From Amoebophrya sp. A120 (lineage: Eukaryota > Protista > Dinoflagellata), in assembly GCA_905178155.1 (NCBI GenBank), contig CAJINV010000011.1, positions 581,982-645,981 of the forward strand: a DNA stretch of 64,000 nucleotides, written 5' to 3'. The notes beneath the pieces were generated by a model. That model was not told the origin of the DNA. It saw only the letters and a program-made list of their open reading frames with translations, and made no database searches. The position numbers and the translations under genes were made by a program. Shown one piece after another: positions 19,701 to 48,590 of this stretch (positions within the stretch are counted from its first letter, which is position 1; each line of letters begins with the position of its first letter).

Positions 19701-22700
19701 CGCCGCGTATTTGTCATGAGCGCCAGGACGAATCCTGGACGAAGAAGCACGACCGTGCACTTGCTTGAACAGCTGCCTCGCGTCGACTAGCGCGTCCTCG
19801 CGACACGCCACCCGGGGCGTCTCCTTCGGTATTGTGAGGCAAAATCCCCCCTCCCCATATTGAAAACGAGATTTGTGATGGTGTATTTGCGTACACGAGT
19901 CGGCTTGTATTGCTAGAAGGCCACGAGACGCAGTTACTCCTTCGTTTGCAGGCAATTTGTAATTACACAAAATAGAACACACTTCAATCCCAAAATAAAT
20001 CTCCTTTCTTTCTTTTTTCCTTGTTTCCTTTTTTCCTTCCAATTCGCACGCAATAATTATCGCTACGGGCCTTGAGGCAATTTGTAATGCTGTTTTCCGC
20101 CTCCACTTTCTTCCTGTGATGCTGAAGACGCAAGGGGTTTCCCAGCACGCCAGCCAGTGCCAGCGCTACAGTCTGCATCTTTTCCCTTTTAGCGTCACAA
20201 CGCGAGTTGTGATCATGAATCATGCTACACAAATCTCCTTTTGAGTACGACGAGGGAGGACTTTTCATCTTGATATTCGGACTCACGTGTTTCTCCGCCT
20301 CGTGCAGTTCCTTCGCGAACCGGTGCTCCATGCGTGTTTTCTTCCCTGCATGTTCCCGGCTGCTGTGGTCGCCCGCGTTCGTAGTGGTACTATACCCAGC
20401 AGCACTCGAGGAGGGCTCATTTCCGATCCGGGTGATTCTCGCGCGGCGCGCGACCCAGTGCCGGCGCCGCACCGCAAAATTCTTGTCCCCGTTGCCACCA
20501 CCAAACGTCGGCACGGGCTGCCAGTCGTCGGCGTGGAAAGATTCCGCGTATCGCCACCCGTCCACGTCTGTGGACACGCCGGGACTGGAGACAATGCTCC
20601 ACTCCCAGAAGACCCGGTAGCGGCCAAAATCGGTGTGTTTTTCCGGCGCAGGTCTTTTCGTGCGCGTGTTCCGCACGTCGCACCACTCCGAGGGGCATCA
20701 AATGCAAAAATGTCTGGGTCTGGAATGTTGCCGGGTTTGTCATGCATATTTTGCTTGATCCAGGATTGTGTGTGATGCATGCCCTACCATCACAGACTTT
20801 TAGAACCCTTCCTGCTGCCGACTCCGCATGACAAATGCCCTCCCCAGGTAGCACAAAATAGACTCCTCTTGCTGGTCATGCAATACAGATTTCTTTACAG
20901 TCCAAAGTTAGCATCACAAGTTCCAACCTTCCAGACCCAGGCATTTTTGCATGTGATAACGGGTCACCGGATTGAAAGCCGCTGAAGGACAGGAGCTGAA
21001 ACTTGCTAAACGCGTTGTTCTATGCATCGCAAATGTGTCTAGGTCTGGAAGATGCAACTTTGTTGTGCAGGCTACGCATGACCCGGAAGGTTTGGAATGC
21101 GTGGTCTAGCATAACAAGCTTTGAGAAGACTCCTCGATACTTATTTCGCATTTAGAAACTAGAACTACGTTGCCTTCGTGTTGCCCAAAGTGGGGGCTTG
21201 TTTTGCTGGTCATGCCATACAGACTTTTCTGTCGATCAAATCTCGCATGACAAACTCGGACTCTTCCAGACCCAGACATATTTGCAGTTGATATGTTCAG
21301 TTCGCGTCGTTGTTCCTCCGGGTCCACCACCTGTTCATCCGTGCTGCCCTTGAAAAAATGCAGCACGGCATTCACGTTGTTCGTCACCAGCACCGCACGG
21401 CGCTCGTTTTCAAAGACCTCCATAGACATCGGAATGTCGTCAAAGTTCGGCTCCTGCCAGGACCGGAGCAGCTGCTCCACCCTTGCACTGGGCAGGGACG
21501 CGGCGTCGCTGTTGGCGGCTCCGCCATCGTTGCTGTCCTCCAAATCGTTCAATCTCTCTTGAAACCCGGGGATCTGGAGCTGGGTGCGCTTCTTACTCTG
21601 TCCCGGCGACTTGTTGGACAGCAGGTCGGTGGTGGTGGCCCGTTTGAACGTTTTGTCACTCGGAATTGCGAGCGCGTAATCCTCGGATAGATCCTCAGCG
21701 AAAACGTGAGCCCTGGCAGTGTCACTCTTGGAAGGCGGACTGAGTAGGGTAACGGGAGTAGTTCTTACCGCTATTGCCGTGGCTTTCATGTGTTTGAATT
21801 CAAAATTACCGCTATCAACATCATAGCTAGTGGCGTCTTCATCCTCTGTAGCTGTGGGGGGGTGGAGGTAGATGCCAGGAGGCGCAGCTTGCCTTGATGC
21901 TCTGTCGTAAAAATTATTGCCTCGCCTTCCGGGGATGTCATCGTCCACGGCCTCTTCGTGACTGGAGGACTCATCTGGGTCGGTTCGCGGCCGGCGCGTG
22001 ACGTCGTTGTAGGTATTATCCTCTTCTTGTAGTCCGGAAGCTGCGGAGGAAGACGCGGATTCCTCATTGCTCTCGTCTACTACTGCTCCGCTGTCGGATG
22101 AAACAAGGAGATCCAATTGTGATCCTTCCCCCGCCCCACCGTGAGCCAGCTCCCCCGCATGATGTTGATCTCCTGGTAGTGAGCTCGCGAGAGTCCTCGA
22201 GGGCGTCGTGCCCGCCTCGGCTGCTTGTTCTGCTCGCTCGGTGTTGATACCCATCATCGTGCCGGGATGAACAAGTGGTTCTTCTTGTTGTGCCAAGATA
22301 TTATAATTGTGTTTCTGAGCTGCAAAACTGAACTCCGTACCAAAGTCCACCAGCTGCTTGCACCTTCGAGTGGAAACTCGGTGCAGCCGAAACCCGGCCC
22401 GGTACCCGTAGTGCAGCAGCAACCTGGTGTTTTTCTGGATCCACGGCTTGTTGTGCAGGCTGACGGCTAGGTGCGAGGCCCAGCCGTACAGCCAGGGCAG
22501 GTAATGGAGAAAGAACACGACGCCCATCTCCAGGCCAAACACGGTCCAGAATAGCACCCGCCGTTGTCCGGGCTGCAGCTCCGCGTTGGCCTGCCGCTGC
22601 TTCAGCACCGTCAAGATTTCCCGCAGGTCCAACGCCAGCGCCTCCCGCGGGCTGCTGCGCACGAACGTTCGAAGGCCGGAAGCGGTGTGCGGCAGGAGCG

Positions 22701-25700
22701 AGCGGGCAAAGCGTGTGTCGGAGATTAAAGGTAGAATTTTGTACTCCCGCTTCTGCTCGGCGGTCTTGTCACCCTGTGCTGCTGCGCCACCCTTGCGGTG
22801 GTTTCGTTTCTCCCGGTGACTCTTTCCCTCCTCTTTGGTCCGCTCCCACAAACTATCAAATGCAAATAAGTATCCCTGGATGTCTGGAAGGATGCAACTT
22901 GTGATGCTGCATTTGGATTCTACAAAAATCTGTATTGCATGAACAGCAAAAAAGGCCCAGCTTTTGCGACGGCGAGAGGGCACTTCTCTTGCGGTATAGG
23001 CATCAGGAAGCCCTCACAGGAGTCTGTGATACTACGGCATACATCATAGACATCAGGGGTCATGCAAAATGTGCATGACAAACCTTGCAACATCCCTGCA
23101 GAACCAGACACATTTGCATTTGATACAAACCGGACACCGGCACGAAGTTCAGGCGCCAGAGCTTGTAGCACACCCAAAGGAGAAAGAACGCGAGAAAGTA
23201 GTCGTATTGGTACAGTAAGAACCAGCTGGACACGAGTAAGTACAACCAACTTCGGTAGTACTGCTCGAATTCCAAAATCCAGTTGATCCCCGCGAAAAAG
23301 TCCCGCAGAACCGCGAACGCGTTGCCCAACCGCGTCAAGGTCCGCCGCGCGTCGACGAGAAACACGTATCCCGAGTAAAAGCGTCCCCATACCAGAGTTA
23401 AGATGGGAAATCTGCTAGACAAATCAGCCAGCTTTGGTTGTTTCGCATGACAAGTCTGTTTCCGTAGTGTAGTCCTGTTTAGGTACTTCAGCAGCATCAC
23501 AGGTCTAGCATATCTAGCTGATTATAGCATCACAAATTCCACAACACGACTCGAAAATGCCCCTCATGGCGATCCGCATGAGAAACTTTTTTAGCATGCA
23601 GATTTGCATGACAACTCTGGGGTGGGGACGATTTTACACAGGATAACACGGACAGTGTCGCCATGTCCATGTTTTTGATCTTCAGACTCCGCTGGTTCAT
23701 CCGGTTCAGCAGTGGCTCAACAGGGAAGTGGTCGTTGGTCCAGTGCCGGTTGTAGTGGACGCGAAACGTGACAAAAATGCGCGCGTCGTCGAAAGGCGTT
23801 TTTTTGTTTTCCGAGTCGAATACTTCGGCATGGTGATCCGGCTGACCAGAACTGTCGGTTGATTTTATGAACAGCTTGTGAGCCCGCTTTTTCATCTTCG
23901 TATCTTTTTTATCCTTCTGTGCGACCTGCAGGTCCTTGCGAACCGCCTCGGGTGGTCGTAAGGGGGTTCTCGTCGCCTCGTAGACCTTATCAAGAACATC
24001 TTCGTCGTCGGCTGGACGTCCGGGTGGGGCGAGAGTAGTAGAAGTAGCGGCTGTAGAAGTTCCTGGCACAACATCCTCACCAACTCCGTGCTGCTGCTGA
24101 TCAATATCCCCAGTTATGGTTGTAGGCACGACGACCGGAGCCGCTGCAGGAGCCGCGGGGGAAGATTTTCTCACAACTGCGGCCGCGGTGGGGCTGTTCA
24201 GTTGGCTGTCTTGTGGTAAGCTGTCCTGCTTTTTTATCGCCATCACCAGCGGAAACTGGTACTCAGTTTGCCCGGACTATGAGAGTTGTGCACAACTAGT
24301 ACTCACCTTGTCATGCAAAATACCAAATGCACCCTTTGCCTTTTGGCATGTTTTGCATGACAGGTTCATCTGGTAGATCAGACAGCACTACAATCATCCT
24401 GGGTCGTGCATTTTTTGTCATGCAAAACCGGCAGTCCTCTTCCCGACGCTTGTATTTTTGACTTGTCAATATTGAGACTTGTGGACTATGAAACCAGTGC
24501 CAAAGGTGTTGCAGTGCCGGGCACTTGGCTCAAGGTATTGTGTCGGGAATTGCTACGCCCAATCCCTCTTCACCCTTCAATGGGCATTTTTTTCGACCCC
24601 TCTCGTTCACTGCACGTTGAGTGAACCTGAAAGAAAATCGATCCGCCGAGTTCGTTACAGTCAAAATCGACTGGTACTAACTCGCCGTCGCCAGTCGGGC
24701 GAAATTTGCTACTTTGCGTGAAGGCTGCAAAAGGTAGACCCTTCGCCGGAGTATAGTTGGGGCTGAGTCCGTTACGGTTCGTTCCGGTTCGTTTCACCGT
24801 AACGAACGAATTTTCGTTCGTTCGTTACGGTTCGTTATGGTTCGTTTCACCGTAACGAACGAATTCCCGTTCGTTCGTTACGGTTCGTTACGGTTCGTTT
24901 CACCGTAACGAACGAACTTCCGTTCGTTCGTTATGGTTCGTTACGGTTCGTTTCACCGTAACGAACGAGCTCGTCAGGAGCCGGTACGCCCTGGCGAACG
25001 AATCCGAGTTTGTGGAAAAGACGGCTGTGCGTGAAAACTGCAAAGGGGCAAAATTCTCGCGAGACTGTGCAGAAGGCCTGCGGCTCAGCAATGTTGCCGT
25101 CTTCTCCGGTGTCGGCTTTGTGCGTTTTTCTTTAGCGAACAAGGTCAGTGAGTACTTCGGAGGGGCTGTTGTTTGTTGAAGAAAAATGCGACTTCATGCC
25201 CGTGCTCGTGTTCCGGGTGGAGCTCTAGGCATCCGAGTGTGCCGGCCTGAATCAGTAGCGTGGGGGCCAAAAGTTCCTGCATGTGTGTCCCCCGCGCGGG
25301 CAGCCCCTTGGTGCGTCACGGCCGGCGCCCTTTCCTGGCGCACGTCGCGCAGCTGGCGGCCATGGCTGGTTGATGTCGAGCCGCTGCGCCATCCTTCGGA
25401 ATATTCCGTGCGACTTTCTGCATTCGAAAATACATAGCGCCGCCGCGCGGAATATTCCGAAGGATGGCATGGCAGATTTCGTGGCGAGTCCTTCGCGGGG
25501 CTTGCCCCCCTTTCCGATAAACGATCTGCCGGCTGGCAGTCGAGGCTGGCACTCAGGAAGGGGCGGCGGGCGACTCCTCTCCGTGGTCGTCCGTGTAGCA
25601 TCCGGTCGGAGGGCCCCCTTCCGCATATAAATCGAGAATACCTTCCTGCGGAATATTCCCCACGACGGCATCCTGCATTTATAAACGTTACTTTCGAAAA

Positions 25701-28700
25701 CACATAGCACCGCCGCGCGGAATCTTCCGAAGGATGGCAGGGCTAATTTTGTGATGAGCCGCCCCCCGCAGGCGCACTCCGGCTTCCCGAAGTCTCCGAT
25801 CTCCGGGGCCCCGGATCCGCGCAAAGCCACTTCGTTCGTTCGTTCGTTACGGTGAAACGAACCATAACGAACGAACGAACGAAAAGCCATTCGTTCGCTC
25901 GTTCGTTCGTTAGGAAGATAGTAGGGAGATAGAATCGGGCTCGTTCGTTCGTTCGTTCGTTACGGTGAAACGAACCGTAACGAGCTAACGAAAGTCCATT
26001 CGTTCGTTCGTTTGGTCGTTACCGGACCCGCGAAGCCACTTCGTTCGTTCGTTCGTTACGGTGAAACGAACCATAACGAACGAACGAACGAACACGCATT
26101 CGTTCGTTCGTTCGTTCGCTTGGATGACAAAGCCAGTGCGTTCGTTCGTTCGTTTGTTCGTTCTGATGCCACAAACGAACTCGTTCGTTCGTTCGTTACG
26201 GTGAAACGAACCGTAACGAACCGTAACGAACCGTAACGAACGAACGAAAATTCGTTCGTTACGGTCAAACGAGCCGTAACGAGCCGTAACGAACCGTAAC
26301 GGACTCAGCCCCAACTATATTGCTTCGCCGCAATATTCCTTCGCCGTCTTTTTTTTATAATCATACGAAAACATATTGGATCGCTAGGGCGGCCGTACAG
26401 TTGTTTACCTACGGTGGGGTCGTAGAATCAAAAAAAAAAATCGCGCGCGCGCACTGCGCGCGCATTCGTTCCTCCCATACGCAATGGCTTTGCATTGATT
26501 CGAAGACCATAGAAGAGAGGCAAGGAAGTTGTGCACTGTTATACAAACCGCTCCTGGAACAAAAACAGCGGCACCTCCAGATACCCCAGCAGCTGCGGGC
26601 CCTTGTCCGCGAAGGGTGATTGCGAGAAAAGCTCAAAGCGGATGCAGTTGTCCGGATTGGCGTCGTAGTCTTGCACCGGGAACTTCGGCAAAAAACACTC
26701 CCGCGGCCAGCGGTACTGCGCGGCGTGCTCCACCGGGCCGCCTTTCACGCACATCAAGGGTCGGAAGGTCAAGGGCGCGTTGGGAAGAAGTGCAGGGTCA
26801 GGGTGATGTGCTGCTGTTCTACTTGAGGGCTCCTGCTGCTTTTGTTTGTTGCTGGAAGTTGTTGCTTGGGCAGCTGAGTTACCATGTTGATCCGGAGTTG
26901 TTGGACTAGACCCCCCGATCATTCCGGCAAACTCCGCGAAGCGTTTCCGCAGATTGATGCACTCGGCCTTGTAGGGCGCCACCGCGATCGTCTTGCAGTC
27001 GCACATTCCGAACTTCACGCGCCAAAAAATCTTGGACTGCAAAATCTTCAGATTGTGCATGTCCTTCTTGAACCTCCTCAGCAACAACGGGTTCTTCGTC
27101 TGCTGCCGCGCCGCCGTTCGTGGAGATAGAGGGTTCACTTCCAAACTAATTCCGGACGTCGTCGACGCGTGGTTGATTTCATTGTTCTGCTCCTGCGTTG
27201 TCCCGTCCGCAGTACGATCCGCTGCAGCCCCGGGAAGCTGCACTTGTTTCACCACTTCGGCAGCAGACCCAGACGTGAGCTGCTCCTGCTGACTGGGAAC
27301 AAACGGCTCACTGTCGTGGCTGGAAAAGCTGTGCCGTGTGCCTTTCGTGTCCGTGACCGGCGACCACTCGTGGTTGTTTTCCACCAGTACATTTTCCTCA
27401 TCGTGTCCATCCAGTTGTGCCGCCGCGGGCCGACTGGAGGATGACGTTGCGGAGGACGAAGAAGAAAAGTTTTCCTCCTCGACATCGTCGCGGGAGAGAG
27501 AATCAATACTATCGCGGAAATTATTATTGTCTTCTTGGTGTTCTTGTTGTACTACCACGACTCCATGCGCCGTCTTTCCACCTCTTTTCTGTTCCACTTC
27601 GTCGTCTGGCGGGGGGAAAACCGACATAGTCTCGCGGCCTGGAGATAGTACAATTTTTGCGGTTGTAGATCTCTCTCCATCAGCATCCTCGCAGCCGCCC
27701 ACTACTTTCTCCACCTCGTCGTCGCGTGGGTCATCTTCAAGCGACTTGTGACCACCACCACCATCTTCGTGCTGATGTTGGCCTAGTTGATGTACAACAT
27801 CTTCGTCATCTTTATTTTTCGCGTCAAAATAACTCATCTCCGCATTATGTTGTTGAACATAAGTCTCGCTGTCCTCGTCGCCGTCCTGCAAAAGGTGCTC
27901 CTGAGACCCAGCGTAGTAATTTGCCAAGTCTGCGATGTCTCCCTGCGACGTCGGGCCCGCCGGCGGACTGTCTGCGGAGGTCGGAAAAACGCGGTCGTAT
28001 CAAATGCAAATATGTCTGGGTCTGGAAGAGTGCTAACTTGTCACGCAGGTTTTCCATGACCCGTGAGTTCTGGAATGCGGGACCTAGCATGACAGACTCT
28101 GTGAGGTCTCTGTCATGCCTATCCTGCACGAGAAATTTCCTCCCAACTTTGTCGAAAGTGGACAGCTTTTGGCACTCATGCAACACAGATTTTTGCATGA
28201 TTTAGATTTAGCATGACAAGATGCAATTCTCCCGACATCCAGGGATATTTGCAATCCATAGGTCGTAGTCCAACACGACGTCCTCCACTTGAATCTCCAA
28301 AAACGCCGGGCGGTCGTTATAACCCGCTCAGGTGTTACAATCTCAAACGTTGCAATAGAGTCTGAGACTTGTCTTGCATGAAGAGCATGACAGACTCGCA
28401 GAGCGTTCCACTTTCTGCAATACAAGTTTCGCCAGATTGTACTAGTGGGGTTTGGGGCTCCGGAACTTGTCATGCGCAATCCTGCGAGAGTTGGCTAGAT
28501 CACGCGCTCTTGCATCACAGATTTCCATACTCTATTGTAACGTTTGAGATTGTAACGCTTGAGCGGGTCATAGTCGTCTTTTTCGTGCACGGGCAGGAAG
28601 TCCACGCTTTCCCGCAGCAAGGGAATCTATCCTGTGACAAAGTATCGGACTCGTAGTGATCGCAGTTATGCATTACAAATCTACTTGCTAAGGTAAACGT

Positions 28701-31700
28701 AAATCCGCATTACAAATTCAATCTGTAATGCTTAGCCAATTTGTATTGCGATTTATACTAGTACGATACTTTTGCAATGCATAGCACCCAGTGGTCCACG
28801 ATGTCCTCTTCCAACCCGTAGAACTCCAGCGGCGCCTCCTTCTTCTCCGCGTGGCTGCTAGAAGAACTACCACCCGTCTGGTGGTTGGGAAAAAGCGTGA
28901 ACGCAGCGAGGTGCAGCTGCTTCATCTTTATTCTTTCGTCATGATTGTTCTCTTTATTATTTTCTTCCGAGAAAATTCTTAAATTTTCGCTTTCCCCAGC
29001 AGCCGCCGGTTGTGAGGGGGTTGTTGTTTTCTTGAGCGCCCAAGGGTTGTAGCCGAGGGGAATGCGTAGTGCCTTTCGCTCTTCAGATGTTGACCCAGTC
29101 GTGCTCACCTTGCTCGTGGTTTTTTTATCCAGACGGGGGTCTGTCGTGTCTGCAACGTGGCCTTGACGTTCCGCTTCGGTCGTGTTTTCGCCATTTATTC
29201 CGAGATCCTCCTGATGATGTCCAGCACTTGTCGCAACTACGATTTCGTCGTCGAGGTCATCATCTTGCCTGCCCACCGCTGCTTGCGACTCCACTGTAGC
29301 CCCCGCGGCCGCCCCGCCTGCCTGCAGTAGTTCCACCTCCTGTTCCTGGTTAATGGTAGAACCACCAATACAAGCTGCGCCCCCTTCGTCGAAAAATTCG
29401 AGATCCACCGAGTAGTTCCTCCTCCGTCCGACGACTTCCATGACGGGAAACAAAGACCCAGTCTCTGTCGTACTACCCGTCCTCCCTCCAAATTCGTCTT
29501 CCTGAAACACCGCGGCGCCGCTGAGCGGAAAGATGTCGCGCACCGTTTCCTTCTCGTAGCTGTTGGAATAGTAGTACGGCCGATGCTATCAACTTTGCAA
29601 AAGTTCTTCGTACTACTATATTGTGCTTTAATCGCAATAATATTGCGTGACATCTCTGGGCTAATCTTGAAGTAGATCTTCAGCTGCAATACAAATTCCA
29701 TATTTTTCGCGCTCCACAATAGATACACTTGTTGTCATGCGACTTGTCGCGTAGTACGATATTATGCTTTTGCAACGCATAGATGCAGCCGGTCCGCCTC
29801 TTCCTCCGCCTGGGCCGGGGTATCCACAGAAAAACACCCATCGACATCCATTTTTTGCATGACAAACCCATGACTTAATACGTGTTTTGCATGACAAATT
29901 GGATGTGGATGAGTTTTTTTCTGTGGATACGGGGAGTAGGTTTCGTCCACCTTGAGAATCCGGAGTCCGCGCTTTTTCACAAAAGAGGGATAACTCGTAT
30001 CGTCGAAAGGACGATCCACGGACGGAGACGATTCCTGCCGAACCAGTTCCTTGGATAAAGACTTTCCCTTGAGCGACCCGAACAACCCACCCCGCTCTTT
30101 CTTTCCAAGCGGGCTGTAGTTGTGCCGTGGACTACTCGCGCTGCCTCCTTTGGGGGACGAGGCACCGGCTCGGTCGCCTCCTGTTCTAGAAGACGCGGTT
30201 GACACTTGGTCGACTACCTCGTAGAGTATCACGAGACAATGCGTCCCATCCGTTTGGTCCTCGCCCAGAATCTCTTTGCCAAAAAGCTGGGCCGTAAATC
30301 CTTTCAAAATGTTATGAGAGTGCACAACTCCCCCTCCCCCTCATTTGTATTGCATGAACAGCAATACAAACACCAGCACACGTGAAGCCTGTGCATGACA
30401 TCAAATTCATGCGCCTAGTGTAGTACTGTTTGGGCTTCCGGAATCTCTCATGCGTACAGTGCCACAGGGAAGCACTTCAATTTGGGCTTTTGCATGACAA
30501 ATGAGGGGGAGGGGAAGTTGTGCATTCCCATAAATGTCCACCATGCCACCGCCGGCAACCTGTGTTGGAGTTTTAATATCTTGGCAGAGATGCTGATGAA
30601 CTTCTATCTTCTACCTGGGGAAAACCTGTTACACGAAAACGAAAAGCAACGATACTATCATGCGAAAATAAAGAGATTATACGAAATATAGAAACTTCAG
30701 TGCTCGGTGTCAGACCGTGTCAATAAAAAAATCACAACTTAAATGATGAATCTTCCCACGATCGATCTTCATAATACGTTCTGCAAGATGCGGTAGAACT
30801 TAGCGTTTTCGCTTTTCTGGTGTCTTTTCTTCCACAAAACGCCCTGCTTCAGAATGCGGACGCGCTTGGGGCGCATGTGGCCCTGCAGTTCCAAGTTTGA
30901 GCCGGGAAAGAGGAACAGTCCGCAGTTCAAATCGCGCGGGCGGAACTCGCCCTTCGCCTGGGCCGCCGCAGCCCGCTGGCGGTCGTATTTGTCGCGCCGC
31001 TGTATGGATGTGTCAGGTTTGAAATCGTCAAAGTTGAAATAGTTTGTCATGCATAAAACGGATACCCGTTAGACCTCCAGTTTGTAGTCGGTGCATGACA
31101 AATTTTCCCGGTCCTGGAAGCGAGTCTGTCGTGCGGTTTAGGGCAAAAGAGCTGCCTTCTGTCATGCTAGTCAGCAGTCCAACTGTTGACCCTTACAAGG
31201 ACTATAATCCGCCTCCCGTGGGTCCTCTGCAATAGAGTCACTTTCTGCGTCGCATTTTATGCATTACAAATTATTTCAACTTTGATGATTTCAAACCTGA
31301 CGCTCCCATACGCTGCCGCTCCCGCGTATCGCGCGCCGTCGCCGAGATTTCGACCAGCGTTTTCTGCGCAGTGACGGAGAGGTAGTCAAACATCGACCCG
31401 ATTTGTACTCCGATACCACCGAAAAAACCGGTGGCTGAGGATTGCGGTTCCGCCGCGTCTTCAACAGCAGCTCCAGTTTCTGTAGCGGCAGCGGCGCTAG
31501 AAGCCGTTTCTCTACTATCCGCCCCTTCGAGCGCTGCGGCATCTTGGTCAACTACATCTACTGTGGCCAACGGTTCTTCTTGCACGGAGTGGTCTGCAGA
31601 AGATGATGTCCCCTCTACAGAATGAAATTCCGTACCTTCCACCGAAAGTGCCGTGGCGAGCAGAGCGTCGTCTTCTGCAGCCGTACTACCCGGCTGATTT

Positions 31701-34700
31701 TTATACTCTGCCGGGTATAATCCGCCCCCCGTCGCTTCATCTTCCCCCGGGACTCCTGCTGCGCGGTCTTCCACAAGCAGTGGCGCTGCTTCCTCGTCTT
31801 CATTCGCAGGGGCCGATGTTCCTGCGCTCGCCGTGGTAGTAGTACCTCCGCTTGCTCCACTGGAGTAGAACATCCTGGCCCACAGCGAACCGAAAAACGT
31901 GGTAGATATTCTATGAAAAAACGTCCCCACCCCATAGTCAAGATGGGGATTTGGCTACACAAAGCGAGCATCTTTTGGCTGTCGCGCAAGACAAGTTTGG
32001 GCTCGCCGCGTCATCGCGTTTAGCTAGTGTAGCTGCATCACAAATCGATCCCCTTATGCTGCTTCTAGCATGACGCACTGCCAGACAGCATTACAGAATG
32101 CTCTTCAACATGGGGCTCTGCATGACAAACGTTTGAGGATGAGGCTTGCAGATTTGCATGACAACTCTGGGTTGGGGAGGTTTTTCCGCAGGATAGTAGA
32201 GGGCTTGGATACATCCACCGGATGGTCTTTGTTGTCCTCATCGGCGTCGGCGGTCGCGGTCGAAGCACCGTTTGCCGACTCGGCGGCTGGAAGTAGATCC
32301 GCAGCTGCAGATCCTCGTCTCTGCCGAAGCCCCTCTGGCGCGCCAACGTCGGAGATGGTCGTGTAGTCTTCGGTAATTATCATATCCGCAGCAGGTGTGT
32401 CAGAAGGACCACGCGCTGCCGCGTCCTCTCCATCATGGATCTCCTTCTCCTGCCCAGAAGCCGGGGTGGTGTCATTCTTCGCGCCAACATCTTCCATAAA
32501 AAAATTTCCATCCTCCTTCTGACCTTCCAGTTCACACGAGGTGAGTGCCAGGTTTACCAGCCGGTCCGTTTCCGAAAGCGCCATAACTTCTCCGACCGAC
32601 ACGGACTCCTCCGGCTCAGCTCCGCCTTTCGTCCGGCCCCGCTCCACGTCCAACACTTCTTCTTGCAAGTTCTCCTGCTCTTGTAGCGCCGTCGTTATAT
32701 TACCACTACCAGCGATTATTTCATCATCTTGCGCAAGCGGAGGACCTGCTGCAGCCGCACTGTCGCGCCCAGAAGTACTCTGCAGCGTCCTCTGCTGGGC
32801 ATCCGAAGAACTGTAGTTTTCGTTCGGCGCCTGTTGTTGTACTGACGGTGGCAGGAGACGCTGGAAGGGCCGTTCTACTACATCGTCGGGCTCGGGCTTT
32901 CTTGTACCATCTTCCACCTCGTCCTCCCCTCCGCGACTGAGAGACACGAAGCTCTTGTCCAGGAGGCTTGTGGCGACGTGTGGAAATAAGGGTAAAGCGT
33001 CCGACGGGGGCACCACGTGCCGTGCGTGCGGCGTGCCGGTCGGACTCGGATACAGCAAAGCATCGTCGTCGGTTCGTTTCGAATCGCTCCGACTCGCACA
33101 AGAACTGGAGGCGAGCGGGACCACTTGCGTGTATTTCGGACTCCCTGGGAGTTGTAGAGCTTCAGGTATGCAAGAAAAAAACTGCGTAAGTGTAACTTTG
33201 TAATGCAGAGCATGAAATAGAGGCACACCTGTCATGCCAGACAGCCACGAAGTCCTCTTTTGATGTGTGTTTTCCCTTACAAGCCACGCATGACAGGTTT
33301 TCGCTGTCATGTAGAGCATATTTGTGATGCTATCAGCCAAGGAAAGTTACACTGACACAGTTTTTTTCTTGGATAGCAGGACCGGAGTGTGGGGCTGCAG
33401 AAGTTATCATAGTACCATCATGATGTTGATCTAGTGCGCTGCTTTTATCGATAGTATAATTTTTGTCACTGCTCGCGAGAAGTGCAGCTGCGCGCGCGTC
33501 CTGTTCCTCCTCTTCGGCTAAAAAAGTGGCTTCTTCCTCCTGTGTGGGTGTCCAGCTGGCGTGCCGCATGGCGCGCACAAACTGCGGGCTGCGAGGGCCA
33601 GTACAACTACCAGGGTCGGCATGATCTCCGTCGCTTGTGTCGTCGTGAATTATATCAGTTGCACCTGAAGATGGGATTTGGATCATGAGCGCAGCAGGAG
33701 CTGCGGTTTTAGGTGCAACACCGGTTGTATCCTCCTCACCAGCAGCAACATCTTCGGACGACGAGGACGGCTTTTCTTGCGCCGTGTACAACGGCTTGCC
33801 ATCCGCGCCGTTAAGCTGAAGATCCGCTACCGTTACAACTGGCCCTGCCGGGAGATCCGAACTGGTGGCGGACTCTTCCCCGGTATGAAATGCAGCGACG
33901 TCTGGGTCTGGAATTAAAATGTGATGCTAATAAAAATTTGCGGATCTTCACAAATATGAAAGACACGCATGACAAGTTTCTGAGCGACTAGGTGTTCTTG
34001 TGTAAAACTGCATGAGAAACTGCGTTTCTGCATTACAAGAAAAGCAGCGCGGTAGCGCGACATGCACGACAGATCCTTGATCTTGTCTAATGTCAGCAGA
34101 GCATTACTTACAAGGCTTACAATCTCCCAGAACCAGACATATTTGCAGTGGATACCCGGGCTTGATCTCCAGTTCCTCCATCCGAGTAGTTCCCGCTGTA
34201 TATGAAGATGGGATTTGGATCATGAGCGCAGCAGGAGCTGCTGCTGTTTTAGGAACGGCGGTTCTTGTATTGTCACCAGGAGCAATAACATCCTCGGACG
34301 ACGAGGACGGCTTTTCTTGCGCCGTGTACTGCTCGCCACCTAAATCGTCCTGATCAACACCCTATGCACGGCAAACGGATCACAATCGTACAAATTGCAA
34401 GCATGCAAGACAAATCTGGTTCCGTACTTGAATCTGCATGACAAATTGCAATTTTCTTCTTGAGAAATTTATTATTATTTGTAATGCAATTTGTACTAGT
34501 GCGATGCTTTTGCAGTGCATACACCTCCTACGGTAGTCACAACTGGTCCTCCTGGCGGGAGGTCCGAACTGGTAGCGGACTCTTCGCCCGGCTTGATCTC
34601 CAGTTCCTCCATTCGCGGAATCGAGGTTGCGCGACCAAAAGACAGCAAATCGACATCTTCAACGATCCCCCCGTCGTCGCTACTAGTTGTACTGCTCTTC

Positions 34701-36478
34701 GCTTGCTTATCCAGAAAAGTAACAGTGGAAGTGTACCTTTGTAGGAAGGGCAGCATCACAAATTCGCTTTGCATTACAGGGAAATAAACCTGTCATGCGC
34801 AGCTAGTATATCCTCGAAGCGCGTACTTATGAAAGTGGGCTATGACGCACATCCAGCATGACAAGTGTCAAAATTTTGCATTTTCTGCACCACCGACTCG
34901 CACTCACACAGTTTTTTTTCTTGCATACTGCTCTACTTGGGACGGCGGTGCACCCTCCTCGGGACTGGACGCCGGCTTCGAGGGGATTTCCGAGTCCGGC
35001 GGTAATAAATCTAGCTCCGGGCTTTTTTTACTCGACGTGGCATTTTGATGCCTCTTGTCGCTCGTAGATGTCAAAGTCCCTGCTGGGCTTGTTGTGCCAA
35101 GAATTATAATCTTAGCATCGTCCACCTCCGCGGGCACCCTAGCTCCTTCGACATTGTGCACTAAAGTTGTAGGGGACCCTGCCTCCGCCCGATCGTGAAG
35201 ATCATCTTGTTCCTCTTCCGCATTCATCAGTACCGTCGCCTGATCATCATGATCATCTCCTTCTCCGCCCACTATCACACAGAAAAAAGCAGGCAGGTCA
35301 CATTTGTAATGCAAAAATAAACACGCCAAAAAATCTGTATTGCATACCCGGAACAGCATGCTATGTGGCCGCCCATGACAGATTTTTCTGCGTATTTATG
35401 TATGCATTACAAATCTGCCCTGCCTGCTTTTTTCTATGGGATACCCACCACAGGCTGCGCAGGCCGCGCGTTCTTCTCCGGTGCCGCCAGCAGTGGTGGC
35501 AGCGACTCCCGACCGGACCCGCTGCTGGACCGCCGCTTCGGGCGGGCGATTATCCAAGAAAAAAACGTTGCTAGTGTAAATTTGTGATGCGCAGCATGCA
35601 AATTGATTGCGCCGGTCATGCTGAGCCTGCATAGTAGGGTCCATTCAAGGGCGTTTCACGTACTATCTGCGCATGACAGGTTTTTGCTGTCACGCGAGAC
35701 ATATTTGTCATGCTAATCCTCCAAGAAAGTTACACCTATTTACAATCTTTTTTTCTTGGATAGCGATTACCTCGTCTTCACTGTTGAATTCCTCATACGC
35801 CTCCGGGTGGTCGGCGTTCGCGCGTTGCAGGATCGCCGTCGGGGAGGTCAACACCGTTTCTAGGGCGTTGAACAAAAGCTTTGCGGGTGCGCCGGCGTCC
35901 GTAGACGTGGCCGAGTCCTCTTCCCCAGCGGTGGACTTCGAGTCCGTTCGGGAAGAAATAACCGTGGGCACGCCTGCACGCGGAAGCTGTTGCCCACCCC
36001 CTCGTCCGCGCTGTTGTGCTAAGACGGAACTGCTGCTCGGTCCATAGCCTCCAAGAAGCGCTGATGACGAAGATAGTTGCAGGCCACTAGAAGTGGTGCC
36101 CGAGGTCGTGCCGGCCCGCAAGGTGGTACTACTACCTGGGAGTTGTGCTCCTGTCGTTGCCCCCGCCACCCACTCCGGCGGGCGCGGCGTGCCCCGGACG
36201 CTCGGGGGCACGGTGGTCGTGGCGCTCCGGGCGGACAGCAGCCCCGGCTCCGATTTGCCCTCCTGCACGAAACGGACGGGGGAAGATTCGCCCTCGTCCG
36301 GAATGACGGAATCGCCGCCGTCGTCATCGTAGCGGCTGTCCGAATCCTCCGCCCGGGCGGGAAGAAAACCAACATCTTCGGACGCGCGCGCGGGTTCTTG
36401 AGGCAGCTGTTCTCTTGAACCACGACTAGTACTGCTTTTGCCACCAGCGACAGAAAGGGGGCCCTCGTCTGTCATCAT
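16768..36478 (-). CDS. Giant membrane-associated protein: low-complexity N-terminus, PH-like, C2-like, transmembrane (Pex24p/MCTP-like) and DysF (peroxin/ferlin) domains; 22 introners plus at least one GT-AG intron
   Basis: All 22 introner junctions translate in frame. Motifs: LKQGVLWKKR...YYYSNSYEKETVRDIFPL (PH-like); IRFELFSQSPFADKGPQLLGYLEVPL (C2-like); VFENERR...GDPSEWCD...DVDGWRYA...VRRRHW (DysF); hydrophobic helices at about 23150-23330, 22450-22560 and 17930-18020. 3' end may extend further. Confidence 0.75.
17057..17277. mobile_element. Introner, family C (TIR TATGAGAGTGCACAACT)
   Basis: TIRs; left end TG instead of TA; flanks gtgcc/ttgcc. Confidence 0.85.
18150..18436. mobile_element. 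Introner, family A (diverged)
   Basis: TIRs; flanks acaga/acagg. Confidence 0.8.
19830..20275. mobile_element. Introner, family D (enlarged)
   Basis: TIRs; perfect TSD ttcgg. Confidence 0.8.
20696..20958. mobile_element. Introner, family A
   Basis: TIRs; left end CA; flanks agggg/acggg. Confidence 0.85.
21021..21293. mobile_element. Introner, family A
   Basis: TIRs; perfect TSD tgttc. Confidence 0.9.
22854..23125. mobile_element. Introner, family A
   Basis: TIRs; perfect TSD caaac. Confidence 0.9.
23367..23645. mobile_element. Introner, family B
   Basis: TIRs; perfect TSD acacg. Confidence 0.9.
24278..26543. mobile_element. Introner, family C, expanded to 2.27 kb by nested insertion(s)
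   Basis: tatgagagttgtgcacaa ... gttgtgcactgttata; flanks cggac/caaac; removal gives in-frame QERFG|QTEYQFPLVMAIKK. Confidence 0.75.
24752..26319. mobile_element. Non-autonomous TIR element (MITE/foldback-like) with (CGTT)n subterminal arrays
   Basis: Perfect TIR TATAGTTGGGGCTGAGTCCGTTACGGTTCGTT / AACGAACCGTAACGGACTCAGCCCCAACTATA; outer TA may be a TA TSD; no credible ORF. Confidence 0.85.
27998..28260. mobile_element. Introner, family A
   Basis: TIRs; perfect TSD ggtcg. Confidence 0.9.
28318..28572. mobile_element. Introner, family H
   Basis: Long TIRs; perfect TSD gtcgt. Confidence 0.9.
28628..28783. mobile_element. Introner, family F
   Basis: TIRs; flanks gaatc/gcacc. Confidence 0.8.
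29587..29781. mobile_element. Introner, family F (diverged)
   Basis: TIRs; perfect TSD gatgc. Confidence 0.85.
29821..29929. mobile_element. Introner, family I (TIR TATCCACAGAAAAA), 109 bp
   Basis: TIRs; perfect TSD cgggg. Confidence 0.9.
30313..30532. mobile_element. Introner, family C
   Basis: TIRs; perfect TSD aatgt. Confidence 0.9.
31003..31310. mobile_element. Introner, family J (TIR TATGG....GTCAGGTTTGAAATC.TCAAAGTTGAAATA)
   Basis: About 50-bp TIRs; perfect TSD cgctg. Confidence 0.9.
31907..32195. mobile_element. Introner, family B
   Basis: TIRs; perfect TSD gtaga. Confidence 0.9.
33167..33375. mobile_element. Introner, family K (TIR TAT.CAAGAAAAAAACTG)
   Basis: TIRs; flanks tcagg/gcagg. 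Confidence 0.9.
33884..34154. mobile_element. Introner, family A
   Basis: TIRs; perfect TSD cccgg; paralogous empty site at about 34578-34600. Confidence 0.9.
34363..34521. mobile_element. Introner, family F
   Basis: TIRs; flanks caccc/cacct. Confidence 0.85.
34708..34927. mobile_element. Introner, family K (diverged)
   Basis: TIRs; flanks ttgct/ctgct. Confidence 0.8.
35273..35443. mobile_element. Introner, family G (TIR TATC.CA.AGAAAAAAGCAGGCAG)
   Basis: TIRs; perfect TSD cccac. Confidence 0.9.
35551..35762. mobile_element. Introner, family K
   Basis: TIRs; perfect TSD gcgat. Confidence 0.9.
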
Positions 36479-36904
36479 GCGAGGGGAGCAGGGGAAAAGC
36501 GTAGGAGCTGAACCCTAGCACCTCCTGGGTAATGCCTTTGATAGCGCGTATGACATTAGAACAAGCTCTCGCAGACCGGTCGTAGAACGAGCTCTCGCAG
36601 AACTACAGATTTCTCTTTCCATACCTCCGAATAAACTACAGCGCGAGAAGAACAACACACCAGGATGAGCAACAAGAACAGCTTGATCTTCCCAATATCT
36701 TGACGCATACTCGGTGAGGCGAGTCTGTTCTGACCATGATCACAGTCAGAAGCTTTGTTTATCACTCTATCGAGCAAGGTGGATTTTGACAACTACAAGG
36801 GGAAAAATCAGTGCGGTTTTTCACGAATCTGTAGCAGTGTTGTATTATCTTCGTGCCGTAGCCAAGCTTAGTTTCCTAGAGCAGCTACGGGTTTATTTTT
36901 TCAG

Positions 36905-37035
36905 TAGTGCGTAGTTGTAGTAGTTTAGTTGCGCCAAGCAGAAAACTCATCAGAAGTGCTACACTCCTTACAAACAGAACAAGCGATGGCAACATCACCT
37001 GCTGTTAAGGTGCAGCTTCAGGATGTCCAGCACTA
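36905..37035. repeat. Intergenic dispersed repeat, second copy at about 40290-40430
   Basis: gtagtagtttag.tgcgccaa...aactcatcagaagtgctacac...acaaac present at both sites. Confidence 0.65.
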
Positions 37036-37939
37036 CGAAGAAAATAAAACACTGGAGGCGATGATTCTTGTTGGTTCTATTTCTAATCTTTGTGGCGTTC
37101 AGATGCACAGATGCTTGCTAGCTTGCAATGCTACGCACGGACCGATGCTAAACTAAACACGCGGAAGGTTCGAACATACACAAAATCTGCGTCAGCTTGT
37201 AAAAATGCATGGAGCAAGTATGTTCAAACTATTCGACTTCGACCCCTGTCGACCTGTAGACAAAACAAAAGCAGTCTCAGTGCTGGGGGTTTTCGGGAGC
37301 TTTATCTTTTGCGAGGACTAATATAGCGCTTGTAGTTGTTGGGGTTCCGGCTAAAGTAGATGCACGGAGGTCGAGTTCTCGCCCTTCTTCTTTTCTTCCG
37401 TGCCTGCAGCTTCTCTTGATCTTCGCGCATCCTCGCTGGCTGGCGTAGGAGGATATTTGTTTGTTTGTCAGTTGAGATTGGTCACATGGAACCAGTTGAA
37501 AGGTGTTCTTTCTTCTCATGTGTCAGTGTCTAGCGCTACTTCAATAAAAAGCACAACCTGGCGGAGCTGCTGTGGGGCCCGCCTTAGAAAAACTAACTGT
37601 ACCTGATGCTGGGAGCGCTAATTTTATAGAAAAACAGACCCTGTCTGGAAGACAAAAGGTGTGATGAATTGCTAGGAGAAGTCTTTTCATCTTCAAGACA
37701 TGCTGTTCAGAAATCAAAGCAAAGTCTTACTTTTTTTGTTTTTTTTTTTAAGAGCCTTGCTGCGTCGGTCAGCATCGGATCGTCTAAATCATATAGGAGC
37801 TTTTATAAGTACTTATGCTCCAACACAAGCCAGCTCGATTCCCGCTAGGGTAGATCTCCTGCTGGTAGTGCCGGAACTACTACTGGTAGGATCTCCCGCT
37901 GGTTCCTGGACATCCTGGAGCAAGGGCACCCGAGCAGCC

Positions 37940-39234
37940 TCAAGGGGACCGGAAGTAGCCGCCGGGGACCCATTCCCCCCCCCCCGCAAGAGCAGCAAAG
38001 GGGACCGGAACCAAGGGGACCACGTCGGAAATTGGATTTACCGGAAGTGCGCGACGAGTTGGAGAATATCCACTGCAAACATCCTGTCTGTGTGGGTCTG
38101 AAAGCTTGTGAAGCTGTCGTGGGTTGGCCAGGAATCAGAAACATCGGCGGCCATGCATGACAAGATTTTGGGCTGGTAGGTCTAATTGCCTGTTCAACAT
38201 CTACGTGCAGAACGAATAAAACGGCGCGCCCCATGCCATCATTTTGGGCAACGTGCGTGACAGCCTTGAAGGTCTTCTTCATGCTAGCCGATAATAGTAA
38301 GTGTTGCACTTATTCTTTTCCCGACCCAGACATCATGTTTGCATATGCATACAGGTGGAACCAGCGGCTTTGCTGCGTAGGAATTGATCATAGAAGCCCA
38401 CCGGTTCACCAACTGCTCGCTGCTAATATGCATGTTCCAAAGGTCACGGAAGTCACGGACAAAAGTGTCAAGCTGTGCGTGATTCCGCCATGGGGACTGA
38501 CGACCTGCAACCTTTTGGAGGCTAAGATGAGCCACCTGGTCATAAGGTTTGAATCTCCGCCACTTCATGGCTGTGCCGTGAGCCGTGAACCGCAAATGTG
38601 CCTGGTCGCGGTGGCCGTTGATCACGAGGGCGGCGAGAAAAGCTTTGTGCCCGAAACGCAAGGTTGGCGGATCAACAACTTTGTACCGCAAAGGGAGAGA
38701 AGGCGGCGTGGCGGACTTGTATTCCAACGTAATGCCAAAAGGACGGACCTGGTCGGGGCCGGGACGGGTCAGCGAAATGGGTGGCGAACGGATCAACGAA
38801 ATGGTCCAGTAAGCCGCTGGAAAATCGAACGATCCGCTCGTCGTCCGGTGCTTAAAGATATGCACGATAGTGCGGTCCTCGTTCTCGGAATTGTCCAAAA
38901 AGTAATACCACGGATGGGGGTCGGTCAAGTCATCCTTGAGTGACTCACGCAAGGATGAAAAAAGCAGGTTCTGTACCTCTTCTTCTCGCAGCTGCGGAGC
39001 TAAAGTGGCATCTATATTGAATGCCTCTCCAAGTCGTTTGACCTGATACTTCATCGTTGCCCCACGTAAGAAACCATGCTTGTTATACGCATCCTCGTAA
39101 TACGCAAGAAGTCCTTCCGCGCCCACATTCGTAACGGCTTCACGGTGTTCGGCGGTCCTGGACCGCAATGCGCTGACCACTGCCACCGTCGACAAGTGAC
39201 AAACGAGAGACATCGCAAGAAAACGCGCCGGCAT
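37940..39234 (-). CDS. Hypothetical protein with a possible N-terminal signal peptide; one introner
   Basis: 316-aa ORF with hydrophobic N-terminus; removing 38067-38351 gives LVPPA|TRRALPV...FRSP*. Confidence 0.55.
38067..38351. mobile_element. Introner, family A (old, TSD decayed)
   Basis: Diverged TIRs; flanks gagaa/caggt. Confidence 0.6.
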
Positions 39235-40638
39235 TTTCTTTGGTACAATGATGCGCGAGATGATCGATATGATGATAATGCTATGGATATCAATAGGAAC
39301 GAATCGTCCTAGATAAGATCTGACCCAGCTCCACTCGGTACGAAGATTCTACGTGTAGATGTTGGCCCTGGGCGGGTCAAGTGGGGAAATAAAGCCGAAT
39401 TACAATTCAAACAGAGTTGCGCTAAAAAGCGACGGCAAGAAGCACAGCTCCAATTGTCACAAGACCGCGCAGGTGTCGTACGTAATGATGTTGCCAGAAG
39501 TAGATGTGGTAGAAAGTGCTTGCTGTAGTTTGTTTGGTAGAAAGTGCTTGCTGTAGTTTGTATACTGTTTTCAAGCTTAAGAGCTAAGTTGGTGGCGGGA
39601 CGTCAAAGAGGGAACTGTTGCTGTGCGTTGTGAAAAGAGAATGCACTGCAGCCATCTTCTTCAAGTGCTACTAGATGGGCCGACTGACAAGAGATTACAA
39701 CTCCACTAAAAGAAATTGATCCCCGAAAAGTGCTTTTTCTGTTTCGTTGTTTCCATCAAATTCATCGTTTCACCGATATTGCAACATTTTCCTGAGTCGA
39801 TTTATCTCTCTTGTTTCAACATTTATTTTTACCGAGGAGAGAGATTCTGCTTAGTGCCTTCCGTCAAGGTCGCATTCATTTCGAAAAGGGCTCTTTCGTA
39901 TGATCTCCTCTATGATTTTTTTGTGAACTTCTTTCCATATTTCGAGCCACTCACATCAAAGATTTGTTTCCGCTGATCTCCTACATCTTTGGCCCAACCA
40001 TACCGAATAGCAATAGGAATAGACAAACCCAGAATGAAAGTAATAAACCAGGACGAAGAGCAACTAGAGCACTTTGATCATGCCTTCTTGACCAACATCA
40101 CGCATAGTCGGTAAGACGGGCCTGTGCCGACTCCACATGGTGGGTTCACGCATAGTCGGTAAGACGGGCAAGTACAAAAGGAAAAATCAATGCGGTTCTT
40201 TTTCAAGCAAATTGCTAGACAGCAGTGCATTTTGGCGCGGTAGAGCGAAAAACCTTCTTTATTTCGAGCGCTGATTCCCCAGCCAAGTGCGTACTTGTAG
40301 TAGTTTAGGTGCGCCAAATACAACTAGAGAACTCATCAGAAGTGCTACACCACTCACTTACAAACTGAGAACAAGTGATCAGGGCAACTACTTATATCGC
40401 CTGCTGTTGACGGAGGTTGCTCTAGGGGACGCAAGTAGAACACTTTCTTCTCTGCAAGAACTATGCCGTGTTTGTTGCCCCCGTAGATGGAATTGTTTAT
40501 CCTTTGTACTCAATTCCGAATTTCTGCACCTCATCTTCGAAGAATTTTGTTGCTTTGTGAGACGGTGAAACCAAAAACAGGCTGGTGTTGAGACTCTTCC
40601 TTCTTTTTCTAGGCTTCTTATGATTACACGACTGTGCG

Positions 40639-41740: not shown

Positions 41741-44700
41741 TTACGCCTGCACGTTGGCCATGGGGAACATGATGCACTTGACCTCGGTAAAGTTTTCCAG
41801 CGCGTATTCGGACTTTTCGCGACCCCACGCATATCCCACAGAAAGAAGCAGATGAAAGAGCGTATTTGTAAAATGCAAGTATAGAATGTACTTTACTTAG
41901 TTCTTGTGCATCCTAAAAAAACACAGCATGCTGACGGCTCGCCCATGACAGATTTTTATTTTCTGTCAGTTACTTTTTGCATCACAAGCATGCCCCGCCT
42001 GCTTTTTTTCTGTACGATAACCCGGACTCCTTGTAGCCGCCAAAGGGCACCGCGGCGTCAAATATGCATTGCAAATATGCCTGGGTCTGGAAGATTGCCA
42101 GGTTTGTTATGCATATTTTGCATGACCAATGACGCCTGTAATGCATGCCCTAGCATCCCAGATTTTTAGAAGTCTTCCTGATGCTTTTTCCGCATGAGAA
42201 ATGCCCTCCCCGTGTAGCACAAACTGGACTCCTTCTGCTAGTCACGCAATACCGATTTTTTTGGAATCCAAAGACAGCATCACAAGTTACCACCTTCCAG
42301 ACCCAGACAATGACAATTTTGCACTTGATATCAAAGTTGTCGTAGCAGTTGATCCACACGGTTCCGTATGAATTGCAAAAATACTTCTTTAGTCGCACCC
42401 GTACTCAATATGCAGACACGCATGACAAACACAAATCTTCTTCTCAAGGTGAAACAGCCTTACAAATTGCATTCGTCATGCTGAGCTACTTAATTTGTAA
42501 AATACTGAGCTACTTAATTCGTAATATACTACGTACGACTACACTTTTGCACTGCATATTCCGGCCTCCAACCGGCGCGCAATGCCCATCGCCTTCCCAA
42601 TGTCCGTGCAGCACACGCCCGCAGCCAGTCCGTAGTGCGTGCGATTGGCGCGGGTCACGGCGTACTTTATCCTCCGCAAAATTGTCCCCACCCCATACTT
42701 GGAATAAACTCTGCAACACAAATCGAGAAGTTTTGGGAAGCGGGCCTGCCAAGATTCTCCCTGTGTTGCTGTGCAGGTTAGCAAGGACAGCCGTAAATCT
42801 TCACAAAGCCGTCTCCCTAGCCTGCTTAGAGCATTGGATTGCAAACACCAAAACAACTGCCATGGAGGGGATGCGCATCTTCACATATGCTCCTGTAATT
42901 GCGAACCTGCATGACAACTCTGGGATTGTGGGGACGTTTTTACACTGGATATCCTGCGAAGATTATTTTAACATCATGCAGAGCAATACCATGAATGTGT
43001 TTTTCAAGGTTCTTGCACGAAACTTGAATCCAGACTCTCAGGCCGTACGCTTAACTCGTGCAGCGCTTGAGTCGTGCGCTTAAGCCGTGCGCTTAGGTCG
43101 TGCGCTTAAGTCGTGCGCTTAAGTCGTGCGCTTAAGCCGTGCGCTTAAGTCGTGCAGCGCTCCTGCCAACTTAAGCCGTGCGGCGGTTAAGTCGTGCAGC
43201 GGTGGAGCCATTCGCTTGGTTCGAAACCTCCTAACTCGTGCGGCGATAGAGTCGTGCGATTGAGTCGCTCAGCAGCGCTCTTAAGTCGTGCGCCTAAAAA
43301 CCCGTACAGCGGTTCAGTTGTGCGCTTGTTGACTCGTCCGATGGTTAAGTACTTAAGTCGTGCGCTGAACTCGTGCAGCGCTTATTAAAAAGCCGCGTGT
43401 AACTACTTAACGTTTAAGAAGTCGTGTGCCTAACAACTCGTGCGCTTTTACTGGTGTTGCACTGATAGGAGCGTGAAGAAGAGCGTAAGTACTTCTCATC
43501 AAAAGCTTAGTACCTCGATGCTGGAATACTTCTGCAGCTGCATGACCGGGCCAAAAATTTCTTCCTTCGCGATGGTCATGTCGTCCGTGACATCGCCAAA
43601 CACCGTGGGCTATCAAATGCAAATATGTCTGGAAGAGTGCAAGTTTGTCATGCAGCTTGTCTGGCATGAGTCTTAAATCTGTGACGTCGATGAGCAGGGA
43701 AAGGACCTCTTTCCTGTCATGCGAAAACGCAGTTTGTCATGCGAAAAACGAAACACACAGCACCGCAAAAACTTGCCATGCTGGGCTGCATATTCTTGTA
43801 GTGTCTTCCCACCACTCACAGATTTGCATCACAAGTTCTTTCCAGACGACCCAGACATATTTGCATTTGATATGGGCTTGATGAAGTAGCCACAGTCGCC
43901 ACGTCGCTCCCCGCCGGTGAGACACTTGGCGCCCTGCTCCTTTCCCCCCGCAATGTAGTTCAAAATCCTGTCAAACTGAATCTTGTCCACCTGGGGACCC
44001 TGCTCGCACCCCTCCTTGGTACCCATGGTGACCTGCTCCGCGCGCGCCACGCACTTCGCCGCGAACGCGTCGTAAATCGACTCGTGCACGAGAATGCGGG
44101 AGCTGGCGCAGCAGCACTGGCCCTGGTTCAGGAACAACCCGACGTGCGCCACCGCGGCCGCCTGGTCCAGGTCCGCATCCTCTACCACACAGAAAAAAGC
44201 AGGCAGGCCACATTTGTAATGCCAAAACAAATACACAAAAAAATTAGTATTGCATATCCTAAACAGCTATATGTTATGGGGCCGCCTGTCATGACAAATC
44301 TTTCTGTGTATCTATTTTTGCATTACAAATAATATGGCCCGGTGCCTGCTTTTTTCTCTAGGGTATCCTCCGTGATGATCAAGGAAGACTTTCCGCCCAG
44401 CTCTATCCTTAGTAAAAATGTCCCCACCCCAGAGTTGTCATGTTGGAATGCAGATTTGCGATGACAGGAATACTTGTAATGCGCATCTCCATGAGAGGCA
44501 TTACCAGTCGCGTTTTGAAATTTGTAATGCTGCAAACAGGATAAGAAGATGGATTTGTGACGCGGTTTTCCTTGCTAACATGCACTACACTACGGACTGC
44601 AACTTGTCATGCGTGGCTCCCAAAACTTCTGGATTTGTGTTGCTAAGTCCCCAACTTGACTCTGGTGTGGGGACGTTTTTACTCAGGATAAGCTCGAGCG

Positions 44701-47640: not shown

Positions 47641-48590
47641 CCAGCGCAAAATGCCGCACGTTGACTCACCACAGGCACACAATCTCGCACAGCGCCCAGA
47701 CAAAGTAGTAAAATATGGCACGGCGGCTGTTCAAAGTAGCAGAATACGGTCTCTTGCCCAGTCAAAGTCGGAAAATCTGGCACATTACCGGGTCAAAGTA
47801 GCAAAATCCGAGGCGTTGACCGGTCAACTTCGCAAAATCTGGCACGTTCAACGGCCAAAGTTGCAAAATCTGGCATCTTGAGCAGTCAAACTCACAAAAT
47901 GTTGGATGTTGAAAAATTGCAGTTGCAAGATCTGCCACGTTCAATGGCAAAAGTTGCACAATTTGGCATCTTAAACGGCCAAAACCGCAAAAACATCGCA
48001 AAGCATTGCCTATTCACTACAAAAATTTGGAAAATCCTATGTGTTAACCGGTAAAAATTGCAAAATCTTGCTTATTGACCACCAAAACTTGGAAAATGTG
48101 GCGGCTTGACTGATCAAAATCGAAAAATCTTGGTAATTGACAAGCCAGAATCAAAAATTATGGGCATTTTACCGGCAAAACGTGCAAAATATTGGAGAAA
48201 ATTGCAAAATATAGCAAATTCATTGGCTCAAGTGGGAAAATCTGGCACATTGGCCGCCGAAAATTGAAAAATATTCCACATCAACTGGCCAAACTTGTAA
48301 AATAATACATATTAAGTGGCGAAAATCCTGAAATTTTGCGCACTTATCAACCAAAGTTGTGCAATTTTGCACCAAACGTGGCCAAAGTTGCAAAGTCTTA
48401 CGCGCTAACTCGCCAGGGTTGCAACATTTTGCAAATTTACCAGCTAAACTCCGAAAATTGTTCAGAGTCAAAGACAAAAGTTAAGCAATATTGCATAAAA
48501 AAGGCAAGAGCGTTGTAATGTTGCACAAGTTCACTGAAAAAATGTGAAATCTTGCTGATTGACTTGCCAAAATCGCAAAGCCCTCAACTC
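47640..48590. repeat. Degenerate satellite with a period of about 33 bp (CAAAGTTGCAAAATCTGGCAC.TTGACCGGT)
   Basis: Recurrent gcaaaatctggca and aaagttgca motifs at regular spacing. Confidence 0.7.

Follow-up and report, generated by a model that had tools for sequence, protein, structure and literature searches.

The introners of Amoebophrya sp. A120, a marine parasitic protist, are described in the cited sections of PMC7789003 as elements of about 240 nt on average, with TAT-N7-AAA inverted repeats at their ends, direct repeats of 3-5 nt (a 5-bp example is given in the legend of its Fig. S19), non-canonical splice ends and a hairpin fold. That paper compares orthologs of distant strains; the term ‘empty site’ is absent from its text, as is the word ‘empty’ from the text of its supplement, figures aside. 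The MITE-derived introners of Aureococcus, Micromonas, Symbiodinium and Polarella (PMC9860276; bioRxiv 2020.10.14.339549; PMC11282704, each in the parts cited here) are, like the element studied in this work (E1), short, bounded by terminal inverted repeats (TIRs) and accompanied by a target duplication, and their splicing keeps the mRNA length, as is predicted for E1. In those introners, however, GY/GA and AG sites are brought along by the element or recruited from the duplication, whereas no AG is available at E1. The comparison of a filled copy with two targets to an empty paralog with one is a routine method for DNA transposons (e.g., in the portions of PMC4495683 and PMC4122938 cited here); the logic is the same in this work, where it is applied within one gene and to an element predicted to be spliced. 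No report of paralogous empty sites was found for Amoebophrya introners in the literature searched, which leaves aside subscription papers, bioRxiv supplements and supplementary figures.

The window, i.e., the whole stretch of 64,000 nucleotides that was analysed, contains a minus-strand gene with a tandem duplication of a unit of about 82 codons (about 250 bp of coding sequence). E1 lies in one copy of this unit and another element, E2, in the other, with the following features.

30772..36478, minus strand: host reading frame, stop-free over 1288 codons (from 36514) once eight elements are removed as element plus 5 nt
33666..34181, minus strand: repeat unit 1, of about 81 codons (MEELEIKP to IQIPSS), with E1 inside; lies downstream in the transcript
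33879..33883, plus strand: left target-site copy, CCCGG
33880..34155, minus strand: predicted non-canonical E1 intron, 276 nt, which would read GT...GG under the 1+4 register discussed below
33884..34154, strand not given: E1 introner, 271 bp, TAT...ATA
34155..34159, plus strand: right target-site copy, CCCGG
34182-34202: linker between units 1 and 2, 7 codons
34203..34612, minus strand: repeat unit 2, of about 82 codons, with E2 inside; lies upstream in the transcript
34363..34521, strand not given: E2 introner, 159 bp, TAT...ATA, of a different subfamily, flanked by CACCC/CACCT
34586..34590, plus strand: empty site with the single 5-mer GCCCG, two synonymous differences away from CCCGG

Both units start with MEELEIKPGEESATSSDLP (minus strand). 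The filled site in unit 1 consists of GACTCTTC (33871-33878), CCCGG (33879-33883), E1 (33884-34154) and CCCGG (34155-34159), so that the direct repeat around E1 has an offset of 276, and the paralogous site in unit 2 is GACTCTTC-GCCCG-GCTTGATC (34578-34598). Taking out E1 together with 5 nt (276 nt) makes the lengths of the units equal and gives the peptide IKPGEES in both, and the ungapped block around the site is then identical at 57 of 62 nt. The differences within the 5-mer (CCC GGG versus CCG GGC) both fall on third codon positions and are synonymous. Searched against the window, the joined E1 junction scores 52/59, and the junctions of the other 49 elements, which serve with it as a control for chance over 50 elements, score 29-35; this junction search found a further empty site in the window for 0 of the 49. 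In the DNA run X1, one contig extends across 33760-34232 and another across 34493-34779, each with 0 differences and at a background depth of 44-50; this speaks against misassembly, although X1 is possibly the window's own source, in which case the support is not independent. The filled/empty pair is thus confirmed as real and as lying within a duplicated gene segment. The earlier note had described the unit with its 271-bp element between two CCCGG copies, which the sequence and a script reproduce, as well as a paralogous site with a single 5-mer and the length of the predicted spliced product, and both descriptions hold: the units align as homologous at the site, and neither a failure of homology nor a residual difference in length was encountered. 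Its single GCCCG is likewise there, but it differs from CCCGG at 2 of 5 positions, a point that the note had passed over.

E1 is an Amoebophrya A120-type introner, an ordinary member of a published class from which it shows no difference in kind, its own splicing being predicted. Two genes of the window match proteins recorded under Amoebophrya sp. A120, one of them at 99%. It has the direct repeat within the 3-5 nt range (CCCGG/CCCGG), and it belongs to a repeated family, with 16 copies in the window, aligning end to end with the 15 others. Its right arm TATCCACTGCAAA fits TAT-N7-AAA, whilst the left arm retains the TAT but only 1 of the 3 A's, and this decayed arm is 4 changes away from the nearest arm of the family. 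Its fold pairs the ends in a hairpin (z = -2.7; 4 of 200 shuffles were as good). Being short and non-coding, with TIRs, a locus-specific target duplication of fixed length and an empty site with a single copy, it also resembles a MITE (a non-autonomous TIR DNA transposon), and it lacks the GY...AG ends of the canonical U2 introners of the Aureococcus/Micromonas type. The earlier reading of E1 as an introner with a 5-bp duplication is sound, but both the element class and the 5-bp repeats were already in print, which that reading had not noted; the locus makes a modest addition, with one polarised empty site and a splice register that may be fixed.

About 50 TAT...ATA elements are found in the window. 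In a census requiring at least three matches between the flanking repeats, 33 of them match at 5/5, 11 at 4/5 and 6 at 3/5, and a census free of any repeat filter gives 28 of 42 at 5/5, eight at 4/5, five at 3/5 and one mis-call; perfect 5-bp repeats, observed 33 times, arise 0-3 times in 20 block shuffles. The repeats differ in sequence from locus to locus, and with respect to the host gene the members of the family are found in either orientation. In the 41 elements with an assigned strand (the 50 minus nine without one; for this and the later frame analysis 15371-16001 was dropped as doubtful and 38067-38351 added), there are 15 differences between target copies in 205 sites, of which 7 fall among the 133 sites at codon positions 1-2 and 8 among the 72 at position 3. 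As 7 of these 15 differences are non-synonymous, the intronic copies drift. Two further members of the family (4523-4783 and 20696-20958) have CAT instead of TAT at their left end, with flanking repeats of 4/5, and 11 of 86 core motifs fall outside the called elements. Inserted elements missed by the census are also likely at 29581-29785, an AT-rich stretch breaking the frame, and at 54985-55291, an inverted-repeat pair.

The explanation that best accounts for the locus, to which we give a probability of roughly 0.85, is a duplication followed by introner insertion with a 5-bp target duplication and splicing of the element plus 5 nt. A coding segment of about 250 bp would have duplicated in tandem, and a non-autonomous TIR element would then probably have entered one copy, doubling its 5-bp target CCCGG through a staggered 5-bp cut by a putative transposase or integrase; E2 would likely be an independent arrival in the other copy. 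The register of removal from the pre-mRNA would be set by the terminal hairpin and not by GT-AG, giving GT...GG in the case of E1. The starting points of this explanation, i.e., the filled and empty sites, their equal length and their equal peptide, are observations; against it stands the empty 5-mer GCCCG, which is not identical to the target copies.

Could E1 instead be older than the duplication? It would then have been precisely lost from unit 2, by cDNA-mediated intron loss, or unit 2 would have been copied from spliced RNA, and the recycling of mRNA, which occurs in dinoflagellates, counts for this unlikely course of events. So does the element itself: the match between its terminal repeats (9 of 16 nt) is the lowest among the 50 called elements, its nearest relative in the window has 64% identity, and it agrees with the family majority at 75.5% (family range 69-93%). 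From this decay and the lack of a close relative in the window, E1 looks older than most copies, which leaves room for an older insertion followed by precise loss, as the earlier note had conceded; gain and loss were moreover indistinguishable in the ortholog comparisons of PMC7789003 (section 16). The target site, however, points the other way. The synonymous divergence of the two units lies between 0.33 (over 59 codons with the same residue) and 0.48 (over 76 aligned codons), i.e., 0.17-0.24 per copy, on fewer than 60 synonymous sites and with gene conversion as a possible distortion, and despite this the target copies of E1 are identical; target-site identity alone favours a later gain by a likelihood ratio of 5-7, or of about 3 if the intronic copy is constrained. 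In other words, if E1 were older, seven neutral target-site positions would have remained unchanged in unit 1 whilst both differences fell in unit 2 (P 0.19-0.32). Loss would also require an additional precise event sparing E2, about 65 nt away, and the element at 34708, about 115 nt away, unless both arrived later.

The mean age of the 41 elements, about 0.055 substitutions per site versus 0.17-0.24 for the duplication, agrees with a later gain, although this mean is too low, since decayed copies such as the two CAT-ended elements and the 11 core motifs left uncalled are under-counted. At the element density of the host gene, two such units would be expected to hold about one element. A rough model run over 24 parameter settings puts the probability of E1 being older than the duplication at 0-0.23, with a median age of 0.04-0.12, and this probability peaks at 0.23 when five arm changes are combined with an old prior and with loss at no cost. 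We therefore consider that E1 was very probably gained after the duplication. The pair had earlier been taken as direct support for insertion, with a 5-bp duplication, after the repeat arose; insertion in that order is favoured, but by inference and not by direct demonstration.

A further possibility is that the 5-bp repeat is no transposase target duplication at all, the element having spread by an RNA route (reverse splicing) or having landed in pre-existing micro-repeats. The cited sections of PMC7789003, which report no transposase for A120 and speak against a general mobilisation by transposase, lend it some weight, whereas the portion of PMC12130899 cited here ascribes A120 introners in part to TIR DNA transposons. 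The empty site has one 5-mer and not two, and the constant 5 bp of the repeats, their locus-specific sequences and the presence of family members in either orientation with respect to the host gene all make such a spread very improbable. Hardly credible at all is that the units are an assembly artefact of merged haplotypes, or that the gene is dead and E1 an unspliced MITE. A retained E1 would bring three in-frame stops into the gene, and the public partial gene model P0004 stops 8 nt short of E1's target copy; against this, both sites are spanned by X1 contigs that show 0 differences and the depth of a single copy, the frame of 1288 codons is open across eight elements, and the units differ by a dN of 0.17, lower than the dS of 0.48.

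The reciprocal site is less clear. E2 is restricted to unit 2, and its removal together with 5 nt leaves the same distance between the flanking anchors in the two units (55 versus 55 nt), so it is only by its length that the E2 site in unit 1 counts as empty: what lies between the anchors has diverged in sequence, and the target 5-mer is unrecognisable there. That the other unit carries a different element at a different position was correctly seen before, and only this erosion of the site had been missed. P0004 agrees with the translation of the window only if 164 nt (E2, 159 + 5) are removed, ten lengths having been tested; the comparison is with the public model itself.

In a search of representative proteins the host gene gave two matches, P0004, which corresponds to unit 2, and P0005, a repeat protein of low complexity that was set aside as a chance match. 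Five scanned exons of the host run have no Pfam match, and of the seven exons scanned in the window six are without one, the seventh being that of a different gene (aldehyde dehydrogenase). Two-exon protein searches among proteins of at most 2000 aa, a weak probe, found no outgroup homologue, and the metagenomes gave 0 relatives (594 pattern matches in one scan, none confirmed, and 0 matches in another). The aldehyde dehydrogenase gene (PF00171; 44326-46511, minus strand) carries five introners within 288 codons, each flanked by perfect 5-bp repeats, and further elements in its likely continuation towards 40600.

With respect to splicing, the continuity of the frame sets the removal length modulo 3 only, as k = 2, 5 and 8 are all open, and it is the empty site in unit 2 that fixes it at +5 for E1. 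Accordingly, E1 is predicted to be removed from the mRNA as element plus 5 nt, leaving the protein unchanged. None of the six cut positions possible in CCGGG yields a 3′ AG, i.e., the ends would be other than GT-AG. Of the ten runs listed, five (X1 and X5-X8) were compared with the window. Contigs of three out of four runs, guessed to be RNA (X5, X6 and X7, from two samples of one study), have a joint 38062>38353 that skips 290 nt (285 + 5), and a weaker joint, 40633>40869, with a short side of 29-30 nt and an element-retaining contig alongside, skips 235 nt (230 + 5). Both share one register, with four flank bases on the left and one on the right (plus strand); provided that the minus strand carries both genes, as seems to be the case, the intron would begin 1 nt before TAT and end 4 nt after ATA. 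Under this 1+4 register, the intron would open with GT in 16 of the 41 elements and close with AG in 3 of them, and T is predicted at intron position 2, where it stands in all nine predominant non-canonical A120 motifs of Table S4 of PMC7789003, the part cited here. At the element at 28667 a stop would be created if the downstream copy were kept. Among the joints listed for X5-X7 contigs and X8 reads none crosses E1 or E2; X5 holds an exact piece of unit 1 of 168 nt at a depth of 2.6 and X8 has no coverage of the gene, and the result counts neither way. The flanking 5-mers of the element at 38067-38351 match at 2/5, yet the three runs skip exactly the element plus 5 nt, which suggests that the terminal repeats, and not the duplication, serve as the reference for the cut.

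It would be tempting to generalise that A120 introners are DNA transposons with 5-bp target duplications, spliced by a hairpin ruler at one fixed 1+4 register whatever the flanking letters, a proposal whose chances we see as evenly balanced. If it is true, the fixed register alone would account for the ‘patternless’ splice motifs of this genome and would hold even where the target copies have decayed to 2/5, as at 38067, whilst intragenic and paralogous empty sites would date the invasion within a single genome. A within-gene empty site shows that the 5-bp repeat either arises at the element or is removed along with it, and a relative date can be read from such a site without a second genome. 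For a class whose describing paper, in the sections cited, left gain versus loss undecided and doubted mobilisation by transposase, the E1 pair is one polarised data point. A single site is anecdotal and, with the class and its 5-bp repeats already in the literature, of modest interest. The comparison of filled and empty paralogs can be extended to every duplicated gene of the genome.

Other parts of the window deserve brief mention. The stretch 37093-37270 has a very high depth in X5 and X7 and is the only one matched by X8 reads (90-95% alike, with loose ends), so it is possibly an abundant RNA or a repeat; Rfam gave no match over 36600-37800. Two dispersed duplications, 1-543 versus 6524-7067 (92% identical) and 36906-37006 versus 40286-40408 (76% identical), have no called element in either copy. 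Short-unit repeat arrays, unrelated to the introners, lie at 24750-26320, 43030-43400 and 47780-48150.
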